Assembly: GCA_021825805.1 (NCBI GenBank)
Contig: JAKAGF010000001.1
Coordinates: forward strand, 1 to 38,904
Direction of reading: 5' to 3'
Length of the DNA: 38,904 nt
DNA from: Nitrospirota bacterium
GTDB lineage: Bacteria > Nitrospirota > Thermodesulfovibrionia > Thermodesulfovibrionales > UBA6898
The notes beneath the pieces were generated by a model that ran no database searches, had not been told where the DNA came from, and saw only the letters and a program-made list of their open reading frames with translations. This document shows positions 6,167-23,100 of the stretch, piece after piece. Position numbers and translations under genes: made by a program. Each line of letters begins with the position of its first letter. Position 1 is the stretch's first letter.

Positions 6167-7186
6167 CTACGCCCTCTTCAATACCTCGCCGGCGATGGAT
6201 GTGAGCGGGAGGACCATGTCAACAACGCCTCCTTCCGCGGCAGCCCGCGGCATGCCGTAGATTGCCGACGTCGCCTCGTCCTGGGCGATGGTGAATCCGC
6301 CCTGCTCTTTGATAACTCCCATTCCACGCGCTCCGTCAGAGCCCATTCCGGTTAAAAGCACGCCTATCGAGCGGCCTCCAGCGCGCTCGCCCACGGAGCG
6401 GAACAGCACGTTGACCGAGGGCCTGTGGATCTCGTCCATCGGTTCTATGTCCAGCCGCACTTTATAGCCGCTCCCTGTCGTTCTGACGGTCATGTGAAGG
6501 CCGGCAGGGGCTATGAGGGCTGTCCCGGGCTCGACTGCGTCACCTTCTTCAGCCTCTCTGACAGCGATTGAAGACGTCGCATCCAGCCTCTTCGCCAGTG
6601 GAGCGGTAAAGCCGCGCGGCATGTGTTGAACGATTAGAAGCCCGAAGGATATCTCATGCGGGAACTTCGGAAGGATCATATGAAGCGCCATCGGACCCCC
6701 TGTGGACGCTCCCATGGCCACGATATCAACAAGACCCTTTGTCCTCCCCCGGTAAAGCTCTGCTTCCCGCGTGGCGATCCGCAGCGGCCTGCCCCCGGCT
6801 ATGGACTTCACCTTCCCTATGATCTCCTTCGCAAGATCGAAGAAGTCCATCATGCCGGTCGAAGACTTGTCCACAAAATCCATCGCCCCCATCTCAAGGG
6901 CCTTGAGCGTCAGTTCCGCCCCATCCCGCGTAAGTTGCGACAGCATGAGAACCGGGGTGGGCAACTCATCCATAATCGCCCGGAGGGTCTCTATCCCGTC
7001 CATCTCAGGCATCATCACGTCAAGGGTAATGACATCCGGCTTCAGCGTTCGGACCTTTTCCAGCGCCTCCCTGCCCGAACAGGCAAGGCCGACGAGTTCG
7101 ATATCAGGATCAGACTGAAATATCCTCTGAAGGGCCTTGCGTACAAAGGCGGAATCATCAACAGCAAGAACTCTTATTCTGCGCAT
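6167..7186 (-). CDS. cheB: Chemotaxis response regulator protein-glutamate methylesterase CheB
   Basis: It has a REC domain (RVLAVDDSAFVRKAL, DVMMPEMDG) and a methylesterase domain (GASTGGP, LTGMGSDGA, IAQDEATSAIYGMP). I moved the start to ATG 7186 (MRRIRVLAVDD). The track start at 7435 would overlap the upstream gene by ~190 nt. Confidence 0.92.
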   Translation of the reverse strand: MRRIRVLAVDDSAFVRKALQRIFQSDPDIELVGLACSGREALEKVRTLKPDVITLDVMMPEMDGIETLRAIMDELPTPVLMLSQLTRDGAELTLKALEMGAMDFVDKSSTGMMDFFDLAKEIIGKVKSIAGGRPLRIATREAELYRGRTKGLVDIVAMGASTGGPMALHMILPKFPHEISFGLLIVQHMPRGFTAPLAKRLDATSSIAVREAEEGDAVEPGTALIAPAGLHMTVRTTGSGYKVRLDIEPMDEIHRPSVNVLFRSVGERAGGRSIGVLLTGMGSDGARGMGVIKEQGGFTIAQDEATSAIYGMPRAAAEGGVVDMVLPLTSIAGEVLKRA

Positions 7187-7241
7187 GCGGTCGCATATCC
7201 TTTCAGGAACAGACTGTCGTCGCCAGGGGACCTCTCTTCCG

Positions 7242-8396
7242 TCACTCCCGCGGCCCGCGCCTCTCCATCTCAGCCAGCCCGAGACGAGCAGCCTGCCGCA
7301 CTTCCTCCTCGGGATCAGACTGCATCTTTGCGAGCGCGGCGCGGGCCCGAGCCATGTCCAGCGCTCCGAGAGAAAGAGCGACCTCTGTCCGCACCTCAGG
7401 ATCTTCATCTTCAGCAAACTGCAGAAGGGCCACATTCTGTCCCGTCATGCTGAGCAGCTTCGCCAGGACAACCCGGTGCGGTCCCGCCGACGCCCTGAGT
7501 TCATCCACAATGCTGCAGAGGGCCCTCCTTCCCATGCCCCACAGCCCTTCGATGGCATACTCCTGAAGCTCATCATCCTTGAGCCCGTCAATCATATAGG
7601 GGATAACCGCAAAGTCCCGCGACCAGCAGAGCGCCACGAAGGCATATTTTTTTATATCAGGGTCCGGGTTTTTGAGCATCTCGATCATCGTCGTCACGAG
7701 GCTGGCAAAATACTCCGGGTTCGGCCTGATGCGCTCCCTGCCGGCGATGGTGACAATCGCCCTGAGAGCGGCTTCCCTGAACCGCGGTTTGCGGACACAC
7801 GCGGCAAGATGCCCGATGGACTCCCGGTTGCCGGCCCGTTCGATCGCCTGAAGCGCCGGCGCATCGAGGCCCTCCCGGTCGAGACATTGGTAGAGTATAT
7901 CAAGCGCCTCCGGGCCGCCCATCTCCCCAAGGGCGTGGACAGCCGCCATGGCAACCCACGGATCATCCTGAAGCGCTTCCCAAAACACGCCCAGGGCAGC
8001 GCTGTCGCCGATCTTTCCCAGGGCCTCCACGCAGGCTGCGCGCACATTGATATCCTCGTCTGCAAAAGCGGCGATGAGGAGGGAGACGCTGCCTGTATCC
8101 CTGATTGCGCAGAGCATATTCGCCGCAAACAGCCGCACCTCCCGGTCCTCGTCCCGGATGAGCGCCTCAAGATGCGGCAGCGCCCTGGGTCCCAATGAAA
8201 CAAAGACCTCCATCGCCGCTGTGCGCGCATCGGCATTATCGTGATTCCGCACGCCCTCCGCAAGACAGGCGACATAGGAATACTCGTCATAGGACTGCAG
8301 GGCCGCGGAAGCCCGCCTCCTGGCCCACCAGTCCCGGCCCGCCAGACCCTCTATGATTTCCCGGACCCTTTCACCCGCATCCCTCATGGGTCGCAA
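7242..8396 (-). CDS. HEAT-repeat (PBS-lyase HEAT-like) protein, paralog 1
   Basis: 384-aa ORF built from repeated D-x-D/E-x-x-VR-x-x-A-x-x-ALG-x-IG units (e.g. DEDREVRLFAANMLCAI, DEDINVRAACVEALGKIG, DPEVRTEVALSLGAL, EEEVRQAARLGLAEM). It is collinear with ORF 9265..10407. The start is either TTG 8396, abutting the cheR stop, or ATG 8387. Confidence 0.8.
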   Translation of the reverse strand: MRPMRDAGERVREIIEGLAGRDWWARRRASAALQSYDEYSYVACLAEGVRNHDNADARTAAMEVFVSLGPRALPHLEALIRDEDREVRLFAANMLCAIRDTGSVSLLIAAFADEDINVRAACVEALGKIGDSAALGVFWEALQDDPWVAMAAVHALGEMGGPEALDILYQCLDREGLDAPALQAIERAGNRESIGHLAACVRKPRFREAALRAIVTIAGRERIRPNPEYFASLVTTMIEMLKNPDPDIKKYAFVALCWSRDFAVIPYMIDGLKDDELQEYAIEGLWGMGRRALCSIVDELRASAGPHRVVLAKLLSMTGQNVALLQFAEDEDPEVRTEVALSLGALDMARARAALAKMQSDPEEEVRQAARLGLAEMERRGPRE

Positions 8397-9284
8397 TCAG
8401 GTTCGCTGCTGTCCCGCATCCGCCTGCGCTTCACTGTTCTTCCGGTATACGATCACCTTCTCGCGGTACTCGGGGGTGAACAGGTTCGTCTTCTGGATGA
8501 GGCTCTCCGCCGACCCGATGAACAGGTAGCCCGTTTCCGTGAGTGCGCTGCTGAAGTTACTGACGAGCCTCTCCGTAGCCGGATCGCTCATATAGATCAG
8601 GACATTCCTGCAGAAGATGACATCCACGGGCGCAAGGCCGGCGTAGAGGCCGCTGTCCAGGATATTTGCGTGCCTGAATTCCACATTCTTCGCGTACGCC
8701 CTCTTCAACTCGTAGCGGCCGTCTTCCACGGTAAAGTATCTTTGGATTCTGCTCATGTCGCCATTGAGGCTTCTGAAGGAGTTTGCCGTATAGGTTGCGG
8801 CATGCGCCTTGCTGACCGCCGTGCGATCGATGTCAATGCCGATGATCTCCACATCCCAGTTCCAGGCGAAGAGCCCGCTTTCGTGGATGAGGATGTTAAG
8901 GGAATAGGCCTCTTCGCCGCTTGAGGAAGCGAGAGACAGAATCCTGAGTCGCTGTTCTCCGCCCTGTTTCTCCCTCTTTATGTCCTGCAGTATCTCCGCC
9001 AGGGCGTCCAGTTGTGGACGCTCGCGAAAGAAATAGGTCTCGTTGTTGGTAATGTGAGACGCGAGAATGAAGAGTTCCTCGCGCGTCGGGTCCGCGACAA
9101 TAAAGTCATAGTATTCCTTGTATGTTGAGAGTCCCAGGATGCTCAGCCGATGGGAGACCTTTGTATGGAGGGTGAGCCTCCGGTCTCCCCGCAGCAGGAT
9201 GCCGAATTCCCGCTCGATGAGATCGCGAAGGGACGAAAACTCCTCCGCGCTCATTATTGTTTTTTTATCGGGAAAGGCCGTCAT
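8397..9284 (-). CDS. cheR: Chemotaxis protein-glutamate O-methyltransferase CheR
   Basis: 295 aa. It has the CheR N-terminal helical region (EEFSSLRDLIEREFGILL), a SAM-binding region (RILSLASSSGEEAYSLNILI) and VIFCRNVLIYM. It overlaps the upstream HEAT gene by 20 nt. Confidence 0.9.
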   Translation of the reverse strand: MTAFPDKKTIMSAEEFSSLRDLIEREFGILLRGDRRLTLHTKVSHRLSILGLSTYKEYYDFIVADPTREELFILASHITNNETYFFRERPQLDALAEILQDIKREKQGGEQRLRILSLASSSGEEAYSLNILIHESGLFAWNWDVEIIGIDIDRTAVSKAHAATYTANSFRSLNGDMSRIQRYFTVEDGRYELKRAYAKNVEFRHANILDSGLYAGLAPVDVIFCRNVLIYMSDPATERLVSNFSSALTETGYLFIGSAESLIQKTNLFTPEYREKVIVYRKNSEAQADAGQQRT

Positions 9285-10407
9285 TGCCGGCGCCCCCTTT
9301 CATCAACTGCAGGGAAAGCACTGCCGCTGCCTTCACCTCGTCAACAGGGTCCGCGGACAGCTTCACGAGGAGGGCCTTGGCCTCCGGCGTATTTACAGTC
9401 CCCAGGGCAAGGGCAGCCTCGGTCCTCACCTCGGAATCCGCATCGCCGGCAAACTCCGGAAAGGCATGGACTTCACCGGTCATGGAAAGAATTTTGGCCA
9501 ATATCCCCCTCTGCCCTCCCCGGCCCCTCAGCGCCCCGATAATGTCAGGAACAGCATCCCTGCCCAGAGCCATAAGACCGTTAATGGCATGTTCCTGTAG
9601 CCCGTCATCGCCGAGCGCCGCGATCAGGCATGGCGCTGCATCCGCCTTCCCGGCCCAACTGAGGGCGATGAGAGCGGCCCTGCGGACAGCAGCGTCGGGT
9701 GACTGCACAAGGTCCTTAAGGACCGGCAGCGTCTCCGCGATAAATAAGGGGGATGGCATCACGCATTCCCTTTCCGCGATGGTCACAAGCGCCCTGAGGG
9801 CCAGCCCGCCGATCTCGCCCCGGCCCACATACTGCATGAGTTGTTCCACGGAGGCGCGGTCTCCGGCCCGTTCAAGGGCCTCGCAGGTCATGCCCCGGTA
9901 TTCCCCACGGACGAGGAACCGGTGGAGGACCGTCCGCGCCTCATCCCCTCCTATCCTGCCAAGGGCGTCGACAGCCGCCATAACAGACCATGGGGAATCC
10001 TCAAGCCTTCGGGCGAGGACGCCGACCGCCCTCGCGTCGCCCATCTTCCCGAGGGCCTCGATTGCGGCTATACGCACGTTCACATCCGTATCCTCGAGGG
10101 CCTCGATGAGGGCCGTCAGGGCGTCCTTGTCCCCGATATCTCCGATCAGATTCGCTGCAAAAATCCTGATGTCAGCATCACTGTCCGAAAGGAGTGACAC
10201 CAGGAAGGCCGTTGCCCCGGAACCCAGGGCCCTGAATACCTCCATGGCGATATTCCTCGACAGATGATCCTCACCCTTCCTGAGCCATGATTCGAGGACA
10301 GCGAGGTGCCGCTCCTCATGGCCCGCTGCAAGCTCTTCGATCTCCTTCTTCCGCGACCACCAGTCTTTCGTCCTGAGCCTGTTCAGCCTGTCCTGGTTCT
10401 CGTCCAT
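9265..10407 (-). CDS. HEAT-repeat (PBS-lyase HEAT-like) protein, paralog 2
   Basis: 380-aa ORF with the same repeat grammar (DSDADIRIFAANLIGDIG, DTDVNVRIAAIEALGKMG, DSEVRTEAALALGTV, DPVDEVKAAAVLSL) and the same N-terminal KDWW/RDWW motif as paralog 1. The ATG at 10407 is preceded by GGGGGAGGA. Confidence 0.8.
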   Translation of the reverse strand: MDENQDRLNRLRTKDWWSRKKEIEELAAGHEERHLAVLESWLRKGEDHLSRNIAMEVFRALGSGATAFLVSLLSDSDADIRIFAANLIGDIGDKDALTALIEALEDTDVNVRIAAIEALGKMGDARAVGVLARRLEDSPWSVMAAVDALGRIGGDEARTVLHRFLVRGEYRGMTCEALERAGDRASVEQLMQYVGRGEIGGLALRALVTIAERECVMPSPLFIAETLPVLKDLVQSPDAAVRRAALIALSWAGKADAAPCLIAALGDDGLQEHAINGLMALGRDAVPDIIGALRGRGGQRGILAKILSMTGEVHAFPEFAGDADSEVRTEAALALGTVNTPEAKALLVKLSADPVDEVKAAAVLSLQLMKGGAGNDGLSR

Positions 10408-10428
10408 TCCTCCCCCGTTCCCCGCCGA

Positions 10429-12939
10429 CTACGCCTCTATGCCCTGAATCGCCTTGAAGGCCTCACAGGTCATGCAGTTCCTGAGCTTTGAGCGGAAATC
10501 TCCCTGCTGGCTGCCCTGGCACCACGTTCCTGCTATCTGCCAGCAGCGATGTTCCCCGACATTATATGCCGGGCATTTATGCCGGGAGCTGGTCGGACAG
10601 TTCATGATATCCCAGCACCTCTTGTTGCCGTTGGAATGTATGATAAAGGAGCTGATGGAGTATTGGAGGTTTTCTATCTGAAAGAGAGTCTCCTCCGACA
10701 TGCCCACCATGTCCTTTGACAGATTGAGGTTCTGGCTGGATATGTTGCTCATGCCCTCCATGGCCTTTACTATCGTCTCGCCGCCGAGCTTCTGTTCGGC
10801 GGTCGAGTTGGCGACCCCCTGCGTCATGGTGCTCATGATCTCCACCGCCTGGACGATCTGCCTGGCGCCGCCTACCTGTTCCTTGACCGCGGTCCCGACT
10901 TCGTGGACCAGGGTCTTCATGCGTTCAATCACCTCGCGCATCTGCCTTCCGCCGATAGCCTGCTCCCGGGTGGCGGTGTTCACTTCCTGCACCATTTTGT
11001 TCATCCTGTCGATTGACTGCCGAACGCTGCCGGCTCCCTTTGCCTGGGCCTGAGCCGCGGCCGCGACCTCATCCGACGACGTATTCATATCAACCACATA
11101 CTTCATCACCTGCTCAATGGCCGTGTTCAGTTCTCCGGCGGACTTCGCGATCCCCTGTATCACGTCGGAACTCTCCTTCATGGACGTGATGATCGACGAG
11201 AAGGCGTCCCTGCTGTTCTCCGCAAGGGTTATGCCGTCCTTGCCCTCGCGGTATGTTTCTTCGGTCGCCTTGATCGCAGTCACTGTTTCCTGCTGCACCT
11301 TCTTGATCACCCCGCCGATCTCTTTCGTCGCCTCCATGGAACGCTCCGCCAGCTTCCGTATCTCCTCCGCAACAACGGCGAAGCCCCTGCCGGCGTCACC
11401 AGCCCGCGCCGCTTCTATGGCCGCATTCAGCGCCAGAAGGTTCGTCTGGTCGGCGATCTCGTCGATCACCTCCACAATCGATCCTATCTCCTCTGAGCGT
11501 TTCCCGAGGTTCTGGATGATCTCCATCGTCTTTTCCGTTGTCTTGCCGATGTTCTGAAGGCTTTCCATACTCCGGTATATAGCCTTGCCTCCCTCCTCGG
11601 CCTCGCTGAATGCGTCCCGGCTCAGCTTGTTGGCGCCGCCGATCCTTCCCACAACCTCCTTGACGGTCCGCGTCATCTCCTCGATCGTCCCCGAGGTCTC
11701 CACTACCATGCTCTTCAGGGAATCAGCGCTCCTGGCAATCTGCTCAATGGACGACAGGAGGTTCTCAACAGTCATCGATGTGTCACTTACCGAATCGGTC
11801 ATCGACGACGTATTCCTCGCCGTCTGGTCCACGGACACCAGCATCTGTTCAATCGTCGCCGAGGTCTCCTCCACCGAAGCGGCCATGCTGTCGGCGCTCT
11901 TGCCGACCTGCGCGATGGATGCGGCCATCTCATTAATGGTCGCGGATGTTTCGTCCACGTTCGTTGCCAGCGCCTCGGCGTTTTTTGCCGCCTTGGAGAT
12001 GGAGACCGACATCTCTTCCACCGACGACGTCGTCTCATCCGTTACCGCCGCCTCCTCCTGCGCCGCCTTCGAGAGCTGGGTCGAGCCCCTGGAAACCTTG
12101 TCGGCATTCAGGGCGACATGGTACGAGGAGGCCACCGCATTCTTCACCATGCCCTGGAGGTTCTTCACCATATCGTTGAAGTAACCCGCAAGCATCCCGA
12201 CCTCATCCTTGCTCTTCATGTCCAGCTCCTGCGTCAGGTCTCCCGCGCTTATCTTCTTCGTCGTCTCGGCCAGCTTCATCAGCGGCCGGGTGATGCTCCG
12301 GCTGATAATGAGTCCGGCGGCAACGGTGAGCAGCGCCGCGACTATCAGGACCCCTGCCATCACTCGGATGGTCTGTCCGATTACCGCATGGGCCTTTCCC
12401 TCCATGGCGTCAATCCGCTTGTTGCCCTCATCAGCAAAGTCTTTTGCGGTTGTTTCGAGGCGGTGTATCTCGTCCTTGTATTCCGTTATCGCGGCATTGC
12501 CCTCCTGCGGCGTCTTTATCTTCTTTTCCTCAACCTGTCTGAAGACCTTGAGGAACCCAGCTTCATAATTAGCGCCCTCAGTCCTCATCGTCTTGACTAC
12601 CGCTTTGTCCTGCTCGGTAATCGCTGCCTTGTCTATGTCATCGAGCCGTTTCTTTAAATGGTCGAGCTGCTCGTCCCATTTCTTGCGGTACTCAGCGACC
12701 TTCTCCGGCTTTTCGATGTTCAGGAATATGTCCTTTTCGTACCGCCGCAGGCCGAGGACATTCGCGCGTGCGCGCGCGGAATGCTCCGCGATATTCCCGT
12801 CTATTTTCAGCATCCTTGTCATCTGCCTCGAAACCGTATCTACGCCCCAGTAAGCGGTGCCGCCCAGGACGAGCAGCAACAACAGCAACAGCGTGAACGC
12901 GATACCCAGCCTGACCCCTATTTTCACATTCTCAAGCAT
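10429..12939 (-). CDS. Methyl-accepting chemotaxis protein (4-helix-bundle sensor, HAMP, extra-long signalling domain, C-terminal 7-Cys module)
   Basis: The track ORF is 10429..13041. I moved the start to ATG 12939, which has AAGGAGG just upstream and is followed by TM1 ([27 protein letters not shown]). The periplasmic region is 4HB-like ([11 protein letters not shown]), followed by TM2 and HAMP. The MCP hairpin tip reads [41 protein letters not shown]. The C-terminus is [10 protein letters not shown]...NCMTCEAF. Confidence 0.93.
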
Positions 12940-12995
12940 CCTGACCTCCTTGCAAAATATCACCGAATTTCGTAATGGACCGCCGGCTCGGAATG

Positions 12996-15356
12996 TCACC
13001 CCACTCCCTGGATGACCCGATAAGCCTGACACGTCATGCAATTTTTAAGCTTCGAACGGGCATCGCCCTGCTTCAATCCCTTGCACCAGGTCCCGCTGAT
13101 GCGCCAGCAGCGGTCTTCTTCGGCATTGAAGGCCGGGCACTGCTGCCGCGAGCCCGTCGGACAGTTGAGGATGTCCCAGCAGCGGTGGCCGCCGTTCGCG
13201 CTGATCCTGAAGTTGCTCATTGTATACTGGAGGTTCTCAATCTGGAAGAGGGTGTCCTGGGCAAGATCAACCATGCCTTTTGAAAGCCTGAGGTTCTCGG
13301 TGGATATCTGGTTCATGCCTTCCATGGCCCGGGTGATATTCTCGCCGCCGTGTCGCTGCTCTGCCGTCGCGTTGGCCACTCCCTGCGTCATGGCGCTCAT
13401 CGTCTCCATCGCCTGCGCGATCTGCTTTGCCCCCCCAACCTGTTCCTTCACCGCAAGGCCTACCTCATGCACGATCGACCTCAGGCGGTGCACCATCTGA
13501 CGTATTTCATGACCGCCCTTTGACTGCTCCGCGGCGGCGATGTTCACCTCCTGGACCATGCGGTTCATCTTGTCGAGCGAACCGCGGATCGAGGCCGCGC
13601 CGTTTGCCTGCTCCTTAACGGAGACCGTCACCTCGTCGGCGGACGCGTTCATGTCCATCACATACTTCAGCGCCTGTTCAATCGCCGTGTTCAGCTCTCC
13701 GGCTGACCTGGCTATCCCCTCTATCACCTCGGAACTCTGCTTTACAGACGTAATAATCGCCGAAAAGGCGTCGCGGCTGTTTTCCGCGAGCAGGATGCCT
13801 CCCTTGCCTTCGCGGTAGGTCTCTTCCGTTGCCTTGATCGCAACCCCGGTCTCCTCCTGCACCTTCTTGATCACCCCGCCGATCTCTTTCGTCGCCTCCA
13901 TGGAACGCTCTGCCAGCTTCCGTATCTCCTCCGCAACAACCGCGAAGCCCCTGCCGGCGTCACCAGCCCGCGCCGCTTCTATGGCCGCATTCAGCGCCAG
14001 AAGGTTCGTCTGGTCGGCGATCTCGTCGATCACCTCCACGATCGATCCTATCTCCTCTGAGCGTTTCCCCAGCCCCTGGATTATCCCCATCGTTTTTTCG
14101 GTCGTCTGTCCGATATGCTGCAGGCTCTCCATGCCCCGATAGATCGCCTTGCCGCCCTCTTCAGCTTCCTGGTACGCCTCCTGCCCGAGCCGGCTCGCGC
14201 CCCCTATCCTGCCCACGACCTCCTTGACGGTCCGGGTCATCTCCTCGATAGTCGACGTCGTGTCGCCCACCATGTTCTTGAGCGAGTCGGCGCTCCGCGC
14301 TATCTGTTCGACCGACGCCAGCAGGTTCTCGACCGTCAGCGACGTTTCGCTCACAGCGTCGGTCATCTGCGCCGAGTGCTTCGCCGTCTGCTGTACCGAC
14401 GCAATCATCCCTTCGACCGTCGCCGTAGTCATCTCTACCGACGCCGCCATCTGTTCGGCGCTCACGCCCACCTGCTCGATAGAGGCGGCCATCTCGGCGA
14501 CCGTCGAGGAGGTCACCTCGACGTTCTCCGAAACCGCCTCAGCGCCCTTCGCCACCTGCCCGATAGACACTGCCATCTGTTCCATGGAGGACGTCGTCTC
14601 GTCCGTAGCGGCCGCTTCCTTCTGCGACGCAGCGGCTATGGCATTTGAGTTGTCCGAGACCCGGCCGGCAACGTCCACCACCCTGAAGGCCGACTCGAGC
14701 GTCTGGCCGACCGTGCTCCTGAAACTCCCGATCATCCTGTCGATGTCCCGGCTCAACTCGCCGATCTCGTCGCCGGCGCCGGTGTCCAGAGTGCGGGAGA
14801 GGTCGCCTGCGGCCACCTTCTCCATCCCCTGCTTGAGCCGCTGAATAGGCCGATGGGCGAGCACCCTGAAGAGGACATAGACTATCAGGGAAACCGACAG
14901 GATCGTGCCGGCGGAAAGGAGCAGGACGATGAGCTGGGACCTGCGCAGCGCCCGATTGATATTATCGGTAGTGAAGACGATCCTGGCGGCGCCGACCTGC
15001 TCGCCGCCCTGCATGATCGGACTCGCGTACTCCCTGAGCTCCACGGCCCCCTCCTTCTGCTTCAATTGCGTGAGGGGCTTTCCGTCTTTGTCGAGAATCA
15101 CCGCATGGACGATATCGGCGTCACGGGACGTGATGTCAGCCACGTAATTTTCGAGGTAGGCGAAATTATAGCTCAGGATCGGCTCGGCAGAGATACCCGC
15201 GAGAAACTTTACCAGATTGTCGCCCCTCTTGTTCAGTTCGGAAAGGAAAAGACGACGCTCGTGCATCCCTATGCTCACGATCGTCACCACCGATATCAGG
15301 GCCATCGCAAGCAGGATGCCGGAAAGAAATTTTTTCGTTAATTTCCAGTTTTTCAT
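12996..15356 (-). CDS. Methyl-accepting chemotaxis protein (small periplasmic sensor, HAMP, extra-long signalling domain, C-terminal 7-Cys module)
   Basis: 786-aa ORF. It has TM1 ([20 protein letters not shown]), a ~120-aa periplasmic domain, TM2, HAMP ([40 protein letters not shown]), the same hairpin tip as the neighbouring MCP, and the C-terminus [10 protein letters not shown]...NCMTCQAY. Confidence 0.93.
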
Positions 15357-15421
15357 GTTGTATCTCCTCGCCCGTTTTTCCGGGGAACCCTAATCAGGCA
15401 AAACAGCCGCGCAGCCGCAAA

Positions 15422-16282
15422 TCAGAGAGCGCCCGCCAGTCTGGCCGCCTGGCGGAGGTGATCATAGTCCCTGTCCGACACCGGAGAAAAAGCGGTAAGC
15501 TTCGCCGACCCCAGGACTTTCTCGGTCGCGGCTTCACCATGTTTGAGCTTGAGCAGCGCGGCCCTTACCTTCTCGGCTGTTGCTTTATTCAGCTTGTTCG
15601 TCGCAAATACCGGCCAGTTGGGAAAATAGTCGGTATACGAGACGATCTTGAGCTGATTCACATCCACCTTGTCCTTCATCTTTTCGAGATCGTCCTCGCG
15701 GATGCCGCCCGCATCAGCCGATCTGTTAAAGACCGCCATCGTGACGTTGTCATGCTTTTTCGCAAAGGGGAGTTTGATGAAATCCTTGTTGACATCGAGC
15801 CCCGCCTTGCTCAGCAGGAGCATCTGAAAGATATACCCGGCCGCTGAATCCTTTTCCACAAAGATGAGCTTCTTGCCCTTCAACTGCTGGATCTTGTCGA
15901 TGCCGCTGTCCTTGCGTGCGATGATGACGCCCCTGAACTTCGTCCCGCCTTTTTTTTCAGCGGAAAGGGCGAGCGGCTCGATCGCCGCATCCTTCTTCAG
16001 CTGCACATAGATAAGCGAATTGGCAAACCCCAGTTCCACCTGCCCCGCCTTCACCATGGCCTTGAACGTGTCAAAGTCCTTGGGCACGACGAGGGTCACC
16101 TGCTCGCCCGTCTCCTTGGACAAATACTCCGCAAGGGGTCTGAACATGGCGTTGAGTTCCACCGCGCCCAGGCGCGGGAGTATCCCCAGTTTGACTTCGG
16201 CCGACGAAAGTCCCTGCGCCGCCAAGAGCACGAACACAATAATAAGAGCACGAATAAGTCTGCTTCCAACTGCGTTGATCAT
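15422..16282 (-). CDS. Periplasmic solute-binding protein, PhnD-like (phosphate/phosphonate-binding fold); no cognate ABC transporter genes nearby
   Basis: I moved the start to ATG 16282, which has AGGAG upstream. The signal peptide is MINAVGSRLIRALIIVFVLLAAQGLSSA. The mature part (KLGILP...FRPLAEYLSKETG...ELGFANSLIYV...FRGVIIARKDSGI...AAGYIF) looks like the PhnD/Phosphonate-bd family as I remember it. Confidence 0.7.
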   Translation of the reverse strand: MINAVGSRLIRALIIVFVLLAAQGLSSAEVKLGILPRLGAVELNAMFRPLAEYLSKETGEQVTLVVPKDFDTFKAMVKAGQVELGFANSLIYVQLKKDAAIEPLALSAEKKGGTKFRGVIIARKDSGIDKIQQLKGKKLIFVEKDSAAGYIFQMLLLSKAGLDVNKDFIKLPFAKKHDNVTMAVFNRSADAGGIREDDLEKMKDKVDVNQLKIVSYTDYFPNWPVFATNKLNKATAEKVRAALLKLKHGEAATEKVLGSAKLTAFSPVSDRDYDHLRQAARLAGAL

Positions 16283-16322
16283 GTGATCTCCTTTCGGGTG
16301 TGACAAAATAACGGCAGTTTCT

Positions 16323-16841
16323 TTACCCCTGTTCCACATCACTCGTCTCGAATTTTTCGCGCCGCAGAAGCTTTTCGAGATCGAGCAGAATGACAAGACG
16401 CTCCTTCAGCTTGCAGACTCCAGTCAGGTAGTCGGTGTCCACTTCGAGCACCTCCTCGGGCGGCGCCTCCACAACGCCCGCCGGGACCCGGATAACGTGC
16501 GAGACGGCATCTACAAGCAGTCCGATCACCTTGCTGCCCACCTCCGTGACGATGATCCGCGAACTCTTGCTCAGGCCGCAATCCTCCAGTTTCAGCCGCT
16601 TCCTGAGATTCAAAACAGGGAGCACCCTTCCGCGAAGGTTGATGACGCCTTCCATATAGGCCGGCGAGTTCGGCACCCTCGTTATGCCCGCAACGCGGAC
16701 GATCTCCCTGACCTGGCTGATGGGGACTCCGTATTCTTCCCCCAGGTTGAAGGTGATGATCTGGGATTCCTTTAACTCTTCCTTGTAATCGGCCAGGATC
16801 TCCTCGGCAAGCCCCGCCGCGGGCAATTTCATGTTAGACAT
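16323..16841 (-). CDS. cheW: Chemotaxis coupling protein CheW
   Basis: The CheW-like domain reads IITFNLGEEYGVPISQVREIV...VINLRGRVLPVLNLRKRL...RIIV...GLLVDAVSHV. The start is set at ATG 16841 with GGAGG 9 nt upstream. The track start (TTG 16871) is also possible. Confidence 0.9.
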   Translation of the reverse strand: MSNMKLPAAGLAEEILADYKEELKESQIITFNLGEEYGVPISQVREIVRVAGITRVPNSPAYMEGVINLRGRVLPVLNLRKRLKLEDCGLSKSSRIIVTEVGSKVIGLLVDAVSHVIRVPAGVVEAPPEEVLEVDTDYLTGVCKLKERLVILLDLEKLLRREKFETSDVEQG

Positions 16842-16874
16842 GTTCACGTCCCTCCTTATCGTTGCAGTCAAGGA

Positions 16875-18503
16875 CTACTCGCACGCGTTCACCTTTTCCT
16901 GACAGTTCACTTTGCCGTTCCAGAACGAAGTGACATCTATGATCAAGACGACCCTTCCGTCTCCGAGTATGGAAGCCCCCGCTATGCCGAATGATTTCCC
17001 AAAGGTATCGTCAAGGGGCTTGATGACGATCTCCTGCTGCCCCCTGAGCCTGCTGACGGCAAGGGCAACGCGTTTTTCTCCACTGCCGAGTATCACAAGA
17101 TATAACCGCCGCGGCCGTTTGCCGGAAAGGCCGAAAAACTCATCCAGCCTGATGACCGGCATGACGCGGTTTCTGAACCGGATGACCTCCCGGTTGTTGA
17201 TGATATGGATCGCCTCGTCGCGGACCTTGATGCTCTCGTCCACGGCGCTCAGGGGGATCGCGAATACCTCGCCCCCGGCCTCTGTCATGAGGGCCGGAAT
17301 GATGGCAAGACTGAGGGGGAGCTTTATGGTGAACAGCGTCCCCTTCCCGGGAACGCTGTCAGCGGAGACCTGCCCGTTGAGGTTTGAAATGTTCCTGCTG
17401 ACCACATCAAGGCCGATACCCCGGCCCGAGACATCGGTCGCCTCCTGTTTAGTCGTAAACCCGGCGGAAAAGATGAGGGAAAGGGCCGCCTCCTTGCTGA
17501 GCTGATCATCGGGCCCGATCAGCCCTTTCCTTGCCGCGGCCTCCCGTATCCGCCCAACGTCCATTCCCCTGCCGTCATCCATGACTTTTATGATCACGTA
17601 GTTGGATTCCTGTCCCGCTGAAAGGGTGATCGTGGCTGAGTGGGGTTTGCCGAGACCGGATCTCTCGCGGGGCGGCTCTATGCCGTGATCCACCGCATTT
17701 CTGATGATATGCAGCAGCGGCTCTTCCAGTTCGTCGATTATCGTCTTGTCGAGTTCGGTGTCTTCCCCCTCGAATGCAAGTCTGATTTCCTTGCCCTGTG
17801 CCTTGGCGAGGTCCCGCACCATCCGGGGGAACTTGTGAAATACCGTGCTCACGGGAAGCATGCGGGCCCTCATGATGCCCTCCTGAAGGCCCGCGATCAT
17901 CTTCCCCATCGCATCGAGCCCGTCCTTCAGCTCTTTCGTCGTCGCCTTGTTGCGAACCTCTCCCCGTATCTGGGTTTCGATCTGGTTCAGCCTTGTCTTG
18001 TAGATGACCAACTCCCCGACCAGGTTGAGAAGGTCATTGAGTTTCTTGAAGTCAACTTTAATGGTATCCGTCTTCGTGCCGAGATATGCAGCCGGGTCCG
18101 CCGGTTGTATGTCGAGGCCGGACGCGCCTCCGTTGAGACATTCCCTGATCAACCCGATGCCCTCAGTCAGTTCGGGTTTTGAACGGGGGTTCTCCCCGAT
18201 CTCGCGGAGGGTGTTCCGGATGATGTGGGCGCTGTCAAACAAAAGCCCCATCGCCTGTCCCAGCTCAAGATCATTGTCGAGCACCTTTTTCAGGATGCCC
18301 TCAACCTCGTGCACAAAGGCCTTCAGGGACTCATATCCCATCATCCCGGCATTGCCCTTGAGCGTGTGGAGCGACCCCAACGTACCGGTGACGGTGTCCC
18401 TGTTGAAGCCGTTTTGCTCCAGCGACATCAGGGCTCCGTCGAAGGCCGCAAGATGGCCGTCGGCGTCATCAAGGAAGTCTTTTATGAGCTCTGAGAATTC
18501 CAC
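16875..18503 (-). CDS. cheA: Chemotaxis histidine kinase CheA (P1-P3-P4-P5; no P2 domain)
   Basis: The Hpt/P1 domain carries the phospho-His context GSLHTLKGNAGMMG. P3 is IKVDFKKLNDLLNLVGELVI. The P4 HATPase has HIIRNAVDHGIE, DDGRGMD and GRGIGLD. A CheW-like P5 domain sits at the C-terminus. I set the start at GTG 18503 (VEFSELIKDFLDD), 10 nt after the cheY stop. The track start at 18611 would overlap cheY by ~100 nt. Confidence 0.92.
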   Translation of the reverse strand: MEFSELIKDFLDDADGHLAAFDGALMSLEQNGFNRDTVTGTLGSLHTLKGNAGMMGYESLKAFVHEVEGILKKVLDNDLELGQAMGLLFDSAHIIRNTLREIGENPRSKPELTEGIGLIRECLNGGASGLDIQPADPAAYLGTKTDTIKVDFKKLNDLLNLVGELVIYKTRLNQIETQIRGEVRNKATTKELKDGLDAMGKMIAGLQEGIMRARMLPVSTVFHKFPRMVRDLAKAQGKEIRLAFEGEDTELDKTIIDELEEPLLHIIRNAVDHGIEPPRERSGLGKPHSATITLSAGQESNYVIIKVMDDGRGMDVGRIREAAARKGLIGPDDQLSKEAALSLIFSAGFTTKQEATDVSGRGIGLDVVSRNISNLNGQVSADSVPGKGTLFTIKLPLSLAIIPALMTEAGGEVFAIPLSAVDESIKVRDEAIHIINNREVIRFRNRVMPVIRLDEFFGLSGKRPRRLYLVILGSGEKRVALAVSRLRGQQEIVIKPLDDTFGKSFGIAGASILGDGRVVLIIDVTSFWNGKVNCQEKVNACE

Positions 18504-18513
18504 GCGCCGGCTG

Positions 18514-18927
18514 CTATGCGCTACCCAGTTTTTCGAGGAACGGCGACTTCTTGATGATAACCTTCTCGATGATCTCGTAGAGCACGTGGGGCTTGAACGG
18601 TTTGACCACATAACCCCATGCCCCGAGCTTCAATGCCCTGAGGGTGTCCTCCTCCTTGCCCTCGGTGCTGATGACAATGATCGGGATCTGCCGGTAGAGA
18701 TTCTCGGCCTTGAGCTTTTCCATGAACTGCAGACCGTTCATCACCGGCATATTGATGTCGAGGAGGATAAGATTGAAATCGCTCTCCCTCGACAGGACGT
18801 CGAGGGCCTCCAGGCCGTTCATGGCGTCGACTATGCGGCAGCCGTTGTACCGGTTAAGCACGAGCCGGTACATGGAGTGTATGAGCTGAGAGTCATCAAC
18901 GATCAGCACTTTGCCTAATGTATTCAT
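18514..18927 (-). CDS. cheY: Single-domain response regulator CheY
   Basis: 137 aa. Motifs are VLIVDDSQLIH, the phospho-acceptor context LLDINMPVMNG, ISTEG and VVKPF. Confidence 0.88.
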   Translation of the reverse strand: MNTLGKVLIVDDSQLIHSMYRLVLNRYNGCRIVDAMNGLEALDVLSRESDFNLILLDINMPVMNGLQFMEKLKAENLYRQIPIIVISTEGKEEDTLRALKLGAWGYVVKPFKPHVLYEIIEKVIIKKSPFLEKLGSA

Positions 18928-18960
18928 ATTCCGCTCCTATGAGTTGCTGTCATGCAGTTT

Positions 18961-19350
18961 CTATACCTTTTGCGCCGGCGGGACGGGAATGCCGAGCGTC
19001 CTGACCTTCGAGATCAGGTGTGAGATGTCTATGGGCTTCTCATAATAATGAAACGCCCCCCGCCGGTATGCATCCTCCTCCATCTCCGCGGAACCGTATG
19101 CCGTCATGATGATCACCTCGGTCCGCGGGCTTGCCTTCTTCACATAGCTCAGAAGCTCAAGCCCCTCGATACCGTACATGCCGCTTAAACGTATGTCCGC
19201 GATAACGAGATCGAATGTATACCGTAAAAGCGCCTCTTCAGCCTCCTCAATCTTGTCGCTGGTGATGACCATTGTATCCTTGCTGCTCAGAATGTGCGAG
19301 AGCGTCATCAGGATAGTCTCCTCGTCATCAACGATGAGAATCTTTTTCAT
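18961..19350 (-). CDS. Stand-alone receiver (REC) domain protein
   Basis: 129 aa. Motifs are ILIVDDEETI, VIADIRLSGMYG, IIMTAYGS and YYEKP. It is the first gene after the sigma-54 promoter. Confidence 0.85.
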   Translation of the reverse strand: MKKILIVDDEETILMTLSHILSSKDTMVITSDKIEEAEEALLRYTFDLVIADIRLSGMYGIEGLELLSYVKKASPRTEVIIMTAYGSAEMEEDAYRRGAFHYYEKPIDISHLISKVRTLGIPVPPAQKV

Positions 19351-19389
19351 CCGTCGTACCCCCCTGAATGTAATGTCCGGCTTGAGAGA

Positions 19390-19404
19390 GCAAACGCGGT
19401 GCCA
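19390..19404 (-). promoter_or_regulatory. Sigma-54 (RpoN) -24/-12 promoter
   Basis: The minus strand reads TGGCAC-CGCGT-TTGCT, an exact match to the TGGCAC-N5-TTGCW consensus. The expected TSS is ~19378, 28 nt upstream of the REC start codon (19350). The leader contains AGGGGGG as a Shine-Dalgarno element. Confidence 0.75.
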
Positions 19405-19529
19405 CCGACCACCACGACCCGGCCTATGCAGGCACGGAAAGCCGCCAAGCGGGGGATCGACTGAAAAGTCTTTTATTCACGGGCGTTATCCGGGTGATCA
19501 CGGAGAAGGGCTGCTGACAAGACATGCGC

Positions 19530-19599
19530 GGACAGAAAAATCAGAGAAACAGGGGCATTGCATGCCGGCCGGTTTCCGGACATGCCGTCCGGAAACCGG
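19530..19599 (-). terminator. Tandem hairpins directly after the bEBP stop codon (candidate terminator, or an activator-binding palindrome)
   Basis: There is a perfect 13-bp inverted repeat: CCGGTTTCCGGAC (19569-19581) and GTCCGGAAACCGG (19587-19599), with a 5-nt spacer. It abuts the TGA at 19600-19602. A second 5-bp hairpin follows (GGCAT/ATGCC, 19554-19566), then a U-rich stretch on the minus strand (CCUGUUUCUCUGAUUUUUCUG). No canonical U-tract touches the first stem. Confidence 0.4.
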
Positions 19600-20922
19600 T
19601 CAACCGATGTTGTAGTTCTTCAACTTCTCGTTCAACGTGGAGCGGGCCACGCCGAGCGCCTGGGCCGCCCTGGTCCGGTTACCGCCGGTCAGTTCGAGGA
19701 CCCGTCGGATATGGGCCTCCTCGACTTCCGTAAGCAACAGCGCCGAGGCCTTCACTTCCGCAGCAAGCGGCAGATGCAGATGCTTCAGCCCGATGGTCTC
19801 GTCCTGGCAGAGGATAAGAGAACGCTCGATGACATTTCGCAGTTCCCTGACATTCCCCGGCCATGCATACGAACTCAGGGCATCCGCTGCCTCGGGGGAA
19901 AAATCGGAGACCTGCTTCTTGCCCATCGCCTTTTTCATCTCGTCCAGATAATACTCGGCTATGAGGGGTATATCTTCGGGCCTCTCCCTCAGCGGCAGCA
20001 GCGCCAGCGGCATGACGTTGAGGCGGTAATAGAGGTCCTCCCTGAAGGCCCCCTGCCTGATCAGAGCCACGAGGTCCCTGTTGGTTGCGGCAACAACGCG
20101 CACATCCACAGAGATGTCCCTCGTGCCGCCGAGCCGCTTCAGGGTCCGTGATTCCAGGACCCTCAGGACCTTGGCCTGCGCGCCGAGAGGCATGTCGCCG
20201 ATCTCATCGAGGAAAAGCGTGCCGCCGTCGGCAAGCTCGACGAGCCCTTTCTTGGTCTTCCTGGCATCCGTGAAGGCGCCCACTTCATAGCCGAACAGTT
20301 CACTCTCGAGTATCTGCTCAGGGATGGCGGCGCAGTTGATCTCGACAAAGGGCTTGTCGCGCCGCATGCTTAAGACATGTATGTTCCGGGCAACGATCTC
20401 TTTTCCGGTCCCGGTGTCTCCCCGGATCAGGACGGTCGTCGTCGCATTTGAGGCAAGGAGGTTGATCATGTGAATGAGCCCCTGGATGTGCGTGCTCCTG
20501 CCGACAAGGGGATACGCAGACCCCCTGAGGAGTCCCGCGCCCTGGCGCATCCTCCGCAGACCCACGCCTTTTTCGACGATCACCGCAAGCTCATCCAGAT
20601 CAATGGGCTTCTGGAAATAATACTCTGCGCCCAGCTTCATCGCCCTGACCGCGTCGCTGATCTCGCTATAGCCTGTCATCACGACGACCGAAATCTCGGG
20701 GTAATCCTTCTTGATCCCCTGAAGCACCTCGAACCCATGCCGGTCCGGAAGACGGAGATCGAGGATGACGATGTCTGGAAGCTCCCGCAGAGCCACGGCA
20801 AGGCCGTCGTTTCCGTTCATTGCCGTAATGACGCCGCAGCCCCTGCCTTCAAAGAATGCCCTGAGACTCTGAGAGATCGTCTCATCGTCCTCGATAATGA
20901 GGATGAGAGGCTCGCTCATCAC
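19600..20922 (-). CDS. Sigma-54-dependent response regulator (NtrC family: REC - AAA+ - Fis-type HTH)
   Basis: The REC domain has LILIIEDDETI and VILDLRLPDRHG. The AAA+ domain has Walker A GDTGTGKE, a GAFTGA-type loop written ESELFGYEVGAFTDA, Walker B GTLFLDEIG, and RVVAATNRDL / FREDLYYRL. The C-terminal HTH reads GGNRTRAAQALGVARSTLNEKLK. The start is GTG 20922 or ATG 20919; both overlap the nrdR stop. Confidence 0.9.
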   Translation of the reverse strand: MMSEPLILIIEDDETISQSLRAFFEGRGCGVITAMNGNDGLAVALRELPDIVILDLRLPDRHGFEVLQGIKKDYPEISVVVMTGYSEISDAVRAMKLGAEYYFQKPIDLDELAVIVEKGVGLRRMRQGAGLLRGSAYPLVGRSTHIQGLIHMINLLASNATTTVLIRGDTGTGKEIVARNIHVLSMRRDKPFVEINCAAIPEQILESELFGYEVGAFTDARKTKKGLVELADGGTLFLDEIGDMPLGAQAKVLRVLESRTLKRLGGTRDISVDVRVVAATNRDLVALIRQGAFREDLYYRLNVMPLALLPLRERPEDIPLIAEYYLDEMKKAMGKKQVSDFSPEAADALSSYAWPGNVRELRNVIERSLILCQDETIGLKHLHLPLAAEVKASALLLTEVEEAHIRRVLELTGGNRTRAAQALGVARSTLNEKLKNYNIG

Positions 20923-21383
20923 CTTCGGTCGCGGTTCTCGAAGAGGGTCCGGACCTCCTCCATCAACTCGTTGAGGTCCTTGAATTCGTGGTACACAGAG
21001 GCAAACCGCACGTAGGCAACCTGGTCGAGGTGCTTGAGCTCGGACATGATCTGTTCGCCGACCCAGGTGCTCTGTATCTCTTTCACGCCCATGCCGAGGA
21101 GACGCTTCTCAATGCCCTCGACGATTTCGTCAAGGCGGTCGGTCCCGATAGGCCGTTTTTTGCACGCCAGGAGTAGTCCATGCTTGAGCTTTCCGACATC
21201 GAACGGCTCGCGGCGGCCGTCCTTCTTGACTACGAGAGGGACGAGGTCTTCGACACGTTCATAGGAGGTGAACCGCTTGCTGCAGCCGAGGCACTCCCGC
21301 CTGCGGCGTATGGCGTCCCCTTCCTTGCTGGTCCGCGAATCGATGACCTTGTCCTCGGGATTGCCGCAGAAGGGGCACTTCAT
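20919..21383 (-). CDS. nrdR: Transcriptional repressor NrdR (zinc ribbon + ATP-cone)
   Basis: The N-terminus is MKCPFCGNPEDKVIDSR...RRRRECLGCSKRFTSYE, followed by an ATP-cone (VVKKDGRREPFD...AYVRFASVY). Confidence 0.93.
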   Translation of the reverse strand: MKCPFCGNPEDKVIDSRTSKEGDAIRRRRECLGCSKRFTSYERVEDLVPLVVKKDGRREPFDVGKLKHGLLLACKKRPIGTDRLDEIVEGIEKRLLGMGVKEIQSTWVGEQIMSELKHLDQVAYVRFASVYHEFKDLNELMEEVRTLFENRDRR

Positions 21384-21407
21384 ATCTCATTTCCTTTTTT
21401 TCAAAAT

Positions 21408-22646
21408 TCACCGGTAGATGGGAAACCGGTCGCAGAGGTTTTTCACCCTGGCAGAAATGGCGGCAATCGCCTCAGGCTCCTTGCTGTTATTAATGACCTC
21501 GGAAATAATCTCTGCGATCTCCTCCATCTCCTCCCTGCCCATGCCTCGCGTGGTGACGCTCGGAGTCCCGAGCCTCATGCCGCTCGTCACTGCAGGGGGT
21601 CTCTGGTCATAGGGGATCGCATTTTTATTGACGGTGATGCCCGCCTTGTCCAGCGCGGTTTCCGCGTCCTTGCCGGTTATGCCCTTGCCTGTGAGATCCA
21701 CAAGCATCAGGTGGTTGTCCGTGCCTCCTGAGATGATGCGGAACCCCCTCCTGATGAGCACATCCGCCATGGTCCGGGCATTTACGACAACGTTCTGCTG
21801 GTACTTCCTGAACTCCTCGGTCATCGCCTCCCTGAGGGCAACCGCCTTTGCGGCGATGACATGGACAAGGGGTCCTCCCTGGATGCCCGGAAATATCATC
21901 TTGTCCACAGCCCTGGCGAACTCGGCCTTGCAGAAGATCATGCCTCCACGCGGGCCCCGGAGCGTCTTATGCGTAGTCGTTGTGACGAAATCAGCATACG
22001 GTACGGGTGACGGATGGAGCCCTGCTGCAACCAGACCGGCTATATGGGCGATGTCTGCAAGGAGATAGGCCCCGACCTCTTTGGATATCTCTGAAAACAT
22101 CTTGAAGTCTATGATCCGCGAATACGCGCTTGCGCCGACAACAACCATTTTCGGACGGTGCTCGCGTGCGAGCCTCCTCACCTCGTCATAGTCGATATAT
22201 CCTTCCTTGTTGACCCCATATGCAAAATTCTGGTAGAGCATGCCGGAGAAGTTGACCGATGCGCCGTGCGAGAGATGGCCGCCGTGGTTGAGACTCATGC
22301 CGAGAATCTTATCCCCGGGTTTCAGCACCGCAAAATATACAGCCATGTTCGCCTGCGAACCGGAATGCGGCTGGACATTGACATGCTCCGCACCGAAGAT
22401 CTTCTTTGCGCGCTCGATGGAGAGGGTCTCTACGGTGTCAGCGTATTCGCAGCCGCCGTAGTAGCGTCTGCCGGGATATCCTTCCGCGTACTTGTTGGTG
22501 AAGATGGAACCCTGGGCCTCCAGCACGGCGGGGCTCACATAATTCTCTGAAGCGATAAGGACGATCTTGTGGTGTTCGCGGTCCCGCTCCCGCTCTATGG
22601 CGTCGAATACTTCCGGATCGTCGAGCCGGAGGTTACTGAGTTCCAT
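21408..22646 (-). CDS. glyA: Serine hydroxymethyltransferase
   Basis: 412 aa. Matching blocks are [36 protein letters not shown], the PLP-Lys context [15 protein letters not shown], and GIQGGPL. Confidence 0.95.
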
Positions 22647-23100
22647 GGGAGTTCAGGCCTTCCTCAATTTTCTTTATCTTATCCAGTCTCCTTATGTGTC
22701 TCGCCCCTTCAAAGGCGGTCGTGGACCATACCTTCACGATCTCGGCAGCCAGGTCTTTTCCGATGATCCGGCCTCCCATGACAAGGATATTGGCATCGTT
22801 GTGCAGCCTGCTCATTCTGGCTGAAAAGAGGTCGTTGCAGAGGGACGCCCGAACGCCGGGAAACTTGTTCGCCACCATCGACATGCCAATGCCGGTGCCG
22901 CAGATGAGGATGCCGCGTTCAACGCCGCCTGAGGAGACGAGTTGCGACACCTTCCGCCCGAAATCAGGATAATCGACGGATTCCGTGCCGTTGGTTCCGC
23001 AGTCAACGATCTCCGCCTGCATGCCTCTGAGAAGGGGGATGATCTCTTCCTTCAGGCCGAATCCTGCATGGTCACAGCCAATAGCGATCTTCACCTGCAC
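22633..23100 (-). CDS. rpiB: Ribose-5-phosphate isomerase B
   Basis: Matching blocks are [17 protein letters not shown]...[16 protein letters not shown]...[18 protein letters not shown]. The start is GTG 23100 or GTG 23094, the latter giving the typical MKIAIG N-terminus. Confidence 0.9.

Follow-up and report, generated by a model that had tools for sequence, protein, structure and literature searches.

We take the features of the described classes of chemosensory systems from the S1 Table of PMC9321776, which updates the Wuichet-Zhulin scheme. In that table, class F16 has the gene order 'OYYAWMR...RB', class F13 has the order 'YAWM...RB' and long MCPs without transmembrane (TM) helices, and the alternative cellular function (ACF) class has CheA-REC and CheR-TPR fusions and 40H receptors. 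Another described system is Che3 of Myxococcus xanthus, a che cluster beside the NtrB/NtrC-type pair CrdS/CrdA, in which CheA3 acts on CrdA~P (PMC3147164). Here we compare with these systems an 11-gene chemosensory operon in a 38,904-nt stretch of DNA (the window) from a Nitrospirota bacterium (contig JAKAGF010000001.1). The operon is best read as a lineage-specific variant of the rare, catalogued, experimentally unstudied F16-like class, an assignment made by gene order. For the region as a whole, we hold it somewhat probable that it forms a chemosensory module, self-contained and inducible, which is specific to Thermodesulfovibrionales-type Nitrospirota and evolutionarily related to the F16 systems of Desulfuromonadota.

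Gene order, class and conservation of the operon

We scanned the open reading frames (ORFs) of the window with Pfam and NCBIfam, used the translations to confirm the gene list, and refined the gene starts by trimming ORF extensions that overlap an upstream gene, which affected several of the mechanical ORFs. The minus strand carries the gene for an NtrC-type activator, a 249-nt intergenic region, and then eleven co-directional genes. The first is a stand-alone NtrC-type receiver, REC (19350-18961, with Pfam and NCBIfam matches), followed by CheY (18927-18514), a single receiver domain with a GAWGYVVKP motif; CheA (about 18503-16875); CheW (about 16841-16323); a secreted Phosphonate-bd protein; the receptors MCP1 and MCP2; HEAT1; CheR; HEAT2; and CheB (about 7186-6167), a 339-aa methylesterase with REC and CheB_methylest domains that matches PRK00742 with 394 bits. 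Successive genes are separated by 33, 10, 33, 40, 65, 56, 21, -20, 0 and 55 nt. All six core components (CheA, CheW, MCP, CheY, CheR and CheB) are matched by Pfam and NCBIfam. CheA has the domains P1-P3-P4-P5 (Hpt, dimerisation domain, HATPase, CheW-like domain); P1 spans residues about 5-101, and residues 146-526 are P3-P5, aligning with positions 290-671 of the CheA of T. maritima and 260-640 of that of E. coli. Because P1 is directly followed by P3-P5, we conclude that P2 is missing. A reading of the window made earlier from the sequence alone had listed the same eleven genes in this order, co-directional and spaced by -20 to 65 nt, together with a CheA without P2, a sigma-54 activator gene upstream and a kinase converging on the 3' end, and the domain scans, translations and CheA alignment bear out each of these elements. 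It had also seen no CheZ, CheC, CheD, CheX or CheV and no flagellar or pilus genes, and we find none of them among the window ORFs scanned against Pfam; the remaining ORFs are housekeeping or unassigned (UvrD, NrdR, SHMT, RpiB, a thioredoxin-reductase-like protein, LptF/G, GH57, LysR, RpoD and DnaG). Scans for terminators and for the sigma-70 consensus return only weak sites inside the operon.

The closest comparison comes from Geomonas azotofigens, where a gene for a bacterial enhancer-binding protein (bEBP) and a CTGGCACGGCGCTTGCCA promoter are followed by CheY, CheY, CheA, CheW, MCP, CheR, HEAT, CheR and CheB. Its CheA is 46% identical to that of the window, its MCP has 768 aa with the tip at 509, and its HEAT protein has 787 aa. 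Since this order is exactly that of F16, with HEAT in the place of the '...', we read the window as carrying the Nitrospirota form of a system like F16. The window order, O-Y-Y-A-W-(SBP)-M-M-HEAT-R-HEAT-B, where SBP stands for solute-binding protein, agrees with F16 in the first six F16 positions, but there is one CheR. The two systems share the upstream sigma-54 activator and the -24/-12 promoter, the two receivers, the P2-less CheA, CheW, a very long transmembrane MCP, and HEAT beside CheR followed by CheB. They differ around CheR, of which the window has a single copy between two half-length HEAT proteins of ~380 aa and Geomonas two copies on either side of a single HEAT protein; in the first receiver, which is NtrC-like in the window and CheY-like in Geomonas; and in the receptors, which in the window end in a Cys-containing two-CW tail whereas the Geomonas MCP has no Cys. 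The convergent kinase with its putative haem-c and two-CW-like motifs and the SBP slot belong to the Nitrospirota version only. The Geobacter che paper mentions neither HEAT proteins nor 64H receptors and so gives no help in mapping the cluster.

The sequence-only reading had called this an ACF-type pathway, a label that we drop. CheA ends with its CheW-like domain and has no Response_reg match, so there is no CheA-REC fusion; CheR (9284-8397) has by Pfam only the CheR_N and CheR domains and no TPR; and the receptors are not of the 40H type but much longer, with a core that aligns with the 44H receptor TM1143 and arms of about 250 aa each. In addition, CheY carries a canonical GYVVKP motif, and the Geomonas relative is in F16 order. 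Class F13 is compatible in gene order, but two TM helices are predicted in almost every one of the 27 orthologous MCPs that we compared. The same reading held that this is not a housekeeping flagellar system; we agree that it lies outside the well-studied flagellar classes, and do not retain the part of the claim by which the output is not flagellar.

The block is conserved as one unit. With the HEAT alignment as query we scanned a genome set that has a single representative for each GTDB species, and we annotated the orthologous loci by BLAST; this yields about 30 loci or species, all from Nitrospirota/Thermodesulfovibrionales metagenome-assembled genomes (MAGs) plus one MAG named Ca. Lithacetigena. 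The contexts of three HEAT1 relatives show the same block, including the upstream activator and the convergent kinase, and the consensus order is [RpiB-SHMT-NrdR]-bEBP-REC-CheY-CheA-CheW-(SBP)-MCP(1-2)-HEAT-CheR-(HEAT)-CheB with the kinase convergent. The sequence-only reading had proposed synteny in related genomes as a check, and the whole block holds together in these about 30 species, with HEAT in essentially every locus and the SBP slot filled in roughly a third. The whole set of bEBP, REC, kinase and -24/-12 element is present in 17 fully covered loci. The sole exception is Nitrospirae bacterium RBG_13_39_12 (L003/L035), where all four are absent and the upstream sequence is AT-rich, while the Che core is kept together with HEAT and a Peripla_BP_6 SBP; apart from it, the convergent kinase is found in every locus that reaches far enough. 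The clade of the operon's CheA comprises at least 120 clusters at 59% identity or more, and those named by taxon are all Nitrospirota bar one labelled candidate division WS2; among these clusters the homolog search finds no outgroup beyond the Nitrospirota clade. The carriers are groundwater and sediment Nitrospirota, mostly uncultured. Three loci (L009, L011 and L013) have an extra CheY-like gene upstream of REC (134-138 aa, 42-45% identical to the operon's CheY), which in L009 and L011 lies between the bEBP gene and the sigma-54 promoter.

Promoter, activator and convergent kinase

The intergenic region ahead of REC contains TGGCACcgcgtTTGCT (19404-19389, minus strand), a sigma-54 -24/-12 element 39 nt before the REC ATG and the only exact TGGCAC-N5-TTGC of the window. 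Within the window alone, one exact match is weak evidence. Across the orthologous loci, every locus whose intergenic region is intact (about 20) has an element TGGCAY-N5-TTGCW 30-50 nt upstream of REC, with minor deviations in three of them. This footprint across loci is far stronger promoter evidence than the single match, and it upholds the promoter that the sequence-only reading had placed ahead of the operon. The activator gene upstream (20922-19600, minus strand) encodes a bEBP with REC, Sigma54_activat (the sigma-54 AAA+ domain), AAA_lid and HTH_8 domains, the composition of an NtrC-family activator, and the -24/-12 element expected with it is there.

The start of the bEBP gene overlaps the stop of nrdR, and at least 10 loci keep the order rpiB-glyA-nrdR-bEBP (in the window, the stretch 20919-23100 on the minus strand). 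The bEBP stop is immediately followed by a perfect 13-bp hairpin (19569..19599, minus strand), likely the transcript end of this upstream unit. Given the overlap and the hairpin, the activator is probably co-transcribed with the housekeeping genes rpiB-glyA-nrdR and made constitutively. We define no convincing activator binding sites upstream of the window promoter; the sole intergenic inverted repeat is the hairpin after the bEBP stop. In Geomonas, the repeated palindromes TCAAGAAATCTTG / TCAAGATTTCTTG upstream of the sigma-54 promoter (L044:3160-3280) are candidate activator sites, and we recognise no equivalent of them in the window.

The kinase gene lies on the plus strand (3311..6166) and converges on the 3' end of the operon. 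The encoded protein has the order TM1, a periplasmic CxxCH domain, TM2, HAMP, a two-CW-like module with seven Cys, GAF, PAS, HisKA and HATPase, by Pfam and NCBIfam. The ATG-started ORF (3443-6166, 907 aa) lacks the first TM helix; the in-frame stretch upstream of it (3311-3442) encodes KSLKRKFFWILLAGVVFFFGILTFLIL, the TM1 helix seen in the orthologs, and offers no ATG, GTG or TTG start for an ORF that would contain it. The start is probably the ATA at 3311, or else an ATG misread as ATA. With a start at 3311, the CxxCH domain lies between TM1 and TM2 and is thus periplasmic. The motif itself (CHGCH, 3695..3709; C85/C88) is a putative haem-c attachment site and is invariant in 18 out of 18 aligned orthologs. 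The 7-Cys module (residues about 312-372; 4376..4558) is a sub-threshold match to the NCBIfam two-CW model NF045718. The kinase matches AtoS/ZraS/NtrB-type models and has a conserved AHE[IV]RNPL H-box; kinases of this type normally partner NtrC-family regulators. Its stop codon abuts that of cheB (6166/6167, 0 nt), as is also the case in L001, while in L004 there is a 31-nt gap. As this leaves no room for terminators between the two genes, the kinase and operon transcripts may overlap.

The earlier reading had modelled a path from the kinase to the bEBP to the sigma-54 promoter. This path gains comparative support from the co-occurrence of its parts (17 loci with all of them and one with none) and from the NtrB/AtoS-type H-box. 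In the path, the membrane kinase would phosphorylate the NtrC-type bEBP, and the activated bEBP would open the conserved promoter and drive the 11-gene operon. We place REC in the same control layer, because its resemblance to the bEBP receiver (35% identity, E 4e-17) exceeds that to CheY (27%). It also co-occurs with the bEBP and the kinase, and this NtrC-like single-domain protein is probably a competing phosphoacceptor that would provide feedback.

Che3-CrdS-CrdA is a characterised analogue (PMC3147164): there, too, an NtrB-type kinase and an NtrC-type sigma-54 activator go together with a che cluster, both in position and in function. By that precedent the bEBP might itself be the Che output, as CrdA is for Che3, with CheA and the kinase jointly setting bEBP~P in an autoregulated gene-regulation device. 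The bEBP and kinase genes bracket the che genes in 17 loci, as this would have it, and the NtrC-like REC could bridge both systems. However, Che3 has no CheY and uses CrdA as output, whereas this operon always encodes a canonical CheY; the Che core of RBG_13_39_12 lacks the bEBP and the kinase, which indicates that the core can function alone; and the sole conserved sigma-54 target that we see is the operon itself, so that here, unlike in Che3, the conserved promoter drives the che genes. We regard the bEBP as Che output as quite improbable, and prefer the bEBP as the switch that turns on the operon.

Receptors, Cys modules and the binding-protein slot

The two receptors are as extremely long as the sequence-only reading had stated. 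MCP1 (15356-12996, 786 aa) has a short periplasmic domain, two TM helices, HAMP, a long helical hairpin and a two-CW tail (12999-13211). MCP2 (about 12939-10429, 836 aa) has a 4HB sensor, two TM helices, HAMP, a very long helical hairpin and a two-CW tail (10432-10647). In the receptors, about 254 aa lie between HAMP and the tip and about 250-258 aa between the tip and the two-CW domain; in MCP1 both distances are about 250 aa, and the heptad periodicity is unbroken over residues about 211-714. Each receptor arm thus has about 35-36 heptads, and the receptor core aligns almost gap-free with TM1143. In most of the 27 MCP orthologs, 328 aa separate the tip motif from the C-terminus; nearly all others have 327-331 aa between the two. 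The longest of the 12 catalogued receptor classes is 64H (PMC6943060), and 64H receptors have been reported in Desulfuromonas (PMC8235581). From heptad counts, we estimate the arms of the window receptors at about 64H length or beyond. In MCP1, both arms (residues about 250-700) consist of 28-residue (4-heptad) tandem repeats, with an 'EQxxGGxxI' motif every 28 residues in the C-terminal arm, a pattern that suggests lengthening by paired duplications. None of the receptors has a pentapeptide tether. By their domain content, the two long transmembrane receptors, together with CheW, would control the P2-less CheA, which would phosphorylate CheY.

The Cys modules that the sequence-only reading had noticed on the receptors are two-CW domains: the tails of MCP1 and MCP2 score 36.5 and 42.2 bits with NF045718, above its curated cut-off of 35 bits. 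Almost every locus has at least one MCP with a two-CW tail. The kinase module aligns Cys for Cys with the MCP tails, with the same seven Cys and without the first Trp, and these seven Cys are invariant in 18 out of 18 kinases. A profile of the three modules of the window matches 1332 representative clusters among 1.84 billion proteins, and the best 81 of the matched proteins include 44 MCPs, 16 histidine kinases, 5 GGDEF and 2 HD-GYP proteins. From this spread over MCPs, kinases, GGDEF and HD-GYP proteins, the two-CW domain is distributed like a sensory input domain, and this is likely its role. We used the profile search of representatives since the 85-aa tail, taken as a homolog query, returned just 4 near-identical fragments and was uninformative. 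The term 'two-CW domain' does not appear in the literature that we searched; the family has a name and no described function.

Since hairpin receptors have a C-terminal arm that returns toward the membrane, the two-CW tail is expected near HAMP, and back there by the membrane it would act as a second, cytoplasmic input to the receptor. The input is probably a metal or an Fe-S/redox signal, given the seven invariant Cys. We infer that the domain would be a metal or redox sensor common to the control and signalling layers. This bears on the earlier suggestion that receptors and kinase sense a common cue, which is supported on the comparative side, in that the same 7-Cys module stands on the receptor tails and in the kinase and is invariant in 18 kinases.

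Between CheW and MCP1 lies the gene of the secreted PhnD-like SBP (about 16282-15422), with a signal peptide and a Phosphonate-bd match of 1e-65. The protein scores 150.8 bits with the PhnD equivalog TIGR03431, below the 261-bit cut-off, and 145 bits with the broader subfamily TIGR01098, above its 112-bit cut-off. There are no phnC/phnE-type or other ABC-transporter partner genes in the window. Across species, the slot directly upstream of the MCP is occupied by proteins of three families (Phosphonate-bd, PBP_like_2 or Peripla_BP_6), and the MCPs that adjoin SBPs have a related, MCP1-like short periplasmic domain. The precedent is the PstS-dependent sensing by CtpL in P. aeruginosa, where a chemoreceptor is proposed to receive the ligand from a periplasmic binding protein of the PstS/PhnD type (PMC4926252). 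The present case differs in that the SBP gene is inside the che operon beside its receptor and that the SBP family is exchanged between species. The SBP would accordingly be a plug-in partner of MCP1, the receptor encoded beside it: it would bind the ligand and dock on the periplasmic domain of MCP1, with no role in transport. In an unrelated che cluster (L065:2919-5807), we observe a 962-aa MCP with a fused Phosphonate-bd domain; besides a 664-aa HEAT-CheR-CheB arrangement, that cluster contains an AAA/ParA-like gene that follows CheA.

HEAT proteins, adaptation and output

HEAT1 (10407-9265) and HEAT2 (8396-7242) are alpha-solenoid proteins, paralogs with 40% identity that belong to one ~375-aa family. 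HEAT1 overlaps the CheR start with its stop by 20 nt, and the HEAT2 start abuts the CheR stop; the three genes overlap or abut in the orthologs as well. In a search of 5.8 billion proteins, the top seven are the only close full-length relatives of HEAT1 (45-99% identical), and its orthologs are found solely in these che loci. The next-ranked HEAT proteins, of ~630 aa, are mixed, with one in a che cluster (L065) and one between unrelated genes, and the looser matches of the HEAT scan (L036-L064) are mostly without a link to che. The AlphaFold2 (AF2) model of HEAT1 is an all-helical solenoid of 22 helices with a pLDDT of 89.9, and Foldseek with this model finds generic scaffolds only (alphaRep, PP2A-A, importin, CpcE/F), which give no functional clue. 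HEAT adjoins CheR also in Geomonas and in L065. In L026 (5925-7784) we find a 619-aa in-frame fusion, HEAT(1-330)-CheR. The last HEAT repeat is missing from it, so that a mere frameshift where the two genes overlap does not explain it; the MCP of this locus is shorter (599 aa) and has no two-CW tail.

Two kinds of described proteins are comparable. A HEAT or HEAT_PBS solenoid encoded in a che region and required for or linked to signalling is known from M. xanthus Che7 (as cited in PMC9040617) and from Halobacterium OE2401F (PMC2666748). Those act on the CheY, CheD or motor side, whereas here CheR is the partner suggested by the gene overlap and by one fusion, and the sequence relationship is that of generic HEAT repeats only. 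The second kind is CheR-TPR, such as WspC, where an alpha-solenoid module is attached to the receptor methyltransferase (PMC3447774), as in the single HEAT-CheR fusion; the TPR module sits at the C-terminus, has only about 2 repeats and is characteristic of ACF clusters, whereas here there is a separate 380-aa HEAT protein, which is N-terminal in the one fusion. By analogy with CheR-TPR, we infer that the HEAT proteins may be scaffolds for the adaptation enzymes, with the gene context pointing to CheR. The two solenoids would scaffold CheR and CheB on the receptors, which carry no pentapeptide tether of their own.

The conservation of HEAT and SBP genes also bears on whether the SBP, HEAT, kinase and bEBP genes might be unrelated neighbours of an ordinary che operon, with the SBP serving an ABC transporter and HEAT hitch-hiking. 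PhnD-like proteins are normally transport components, and HEAT repeats are common and non-specific. However, phnC/phnE-type genes are absent from the window, one slot holds three different SBP families, the HEAT family is found only inside these che loci, and the regulators co-occur with the operon in 17 loci and are all missing in one, a synteny that contradicts chance neighbourhood. We consider this explanation very improbable, and continue with the genes as parts of one module.

The output of the module is its least certain step. CheY most probably acts on motility, and its GYVVKP motif is kept in nearly all orthologs; the chances that motility control is the output are roughly one half. 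Another candidate is an ACF-like pathway in which CheY~P or REC~P acts on the HEAT proteins or another non-motor target and would thereby control physiology or development, not movement. The Che7 system of M. xanthus has such a link to HEAT-repeat proteins (as cited in PMC9040617), with CheY7 working together with the HEAT protein Cpc7, and the cluster has just one or two dedicated receptors, two single-domain receivers, dedicated transcriptional control, and no motility genes in the window. Yet the CheA-REC fusion, the CheR-TPR fusion and the 40H receptors are all absent, the HEAT genes are tied to CheR (by overlap and fusion) and not to CheY, the GYVVKP motif is kept, and the gene order fits an F class. 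On balance, an output of the ACF kind appears unlikely to us, and motility control is the output that we prefer.

Several points speak against parts of the interpretation given here. The F16 assignment is by gene order alone, the window has one CheR and not two, and its REC is not orthologous to the first CheY of Geomonas. The sigma-54 contact loop of the bEBP is GAFTDA in 19 out of 19 orthologs, not the canonical GAFTGA. The kinase module scores 29.5 bits (E 7e-7) with NF045718, below the 35-bit cut-off, and for the two-CW domain AF2 gives a model of such low confidence (pLDDT 64.7) that we do not rely on it. Just one HEAT-CheR fusion is seen, on a MAG contig, and the described HEAT proteins of M. 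xanthus Che7 (as cited in PMC9040617) and of Halobacterium (OE2401F, PMC2666748) work with CheY or at a step after it rather than with CheR. With one or two receptors per cluster and no motility genes nearby in the window scan, the motility output is affected as well, and all links in the control layer and in signalling are comparative; what the sequences themselves establish is which parts there are, how these are built and conserved, and that they occur together.

Taken jointly, the parts allow a tentative and rather doubtful reading. A two-CW metal or Fe-S redox sensor may set both whether the Che machine is made and how it fires; the HEAT proteins may replace the pentapeptide or TPR tether and bring CheR and CheB to receptors ~2x the length of those of E. 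coli; and the whole may amount to a lineage-wide energy or redox taxis with plug-in SBPs. A design of this kind, with one sensor module for transcriptional and post-translational control, a swappable SBP slot and long receptors, yields clear predictions for biochemistry and cryo-tomography. The rare, experimentally untouched F16 class and its relatives gain a testable parts list and a second phylum. The HEAT family is identified as a set of conserved Che accessory components, probably tied to the adaptation enzymes. The unstudied two-CW domain, with more than 1000 representative clusters that include MCPs, kinases and c-di-GMP enzymes, is given a likely sensory role.

Other features of the window lie outside the module. 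A 590-aa protein with Thioredoxin_3 and Pyr_redox_2 domains is encoded at 23145-24917 (plus strand), divergent from rpiB, and a similar gene is in the same position in L004. Further along on the minus strand are an RNase P RNA (class A, 216 bits; 34553-34973) and a tRNA-Met (35754-35829), which adjoin rpoD (35904-37391) and dnaG (37388-38665).

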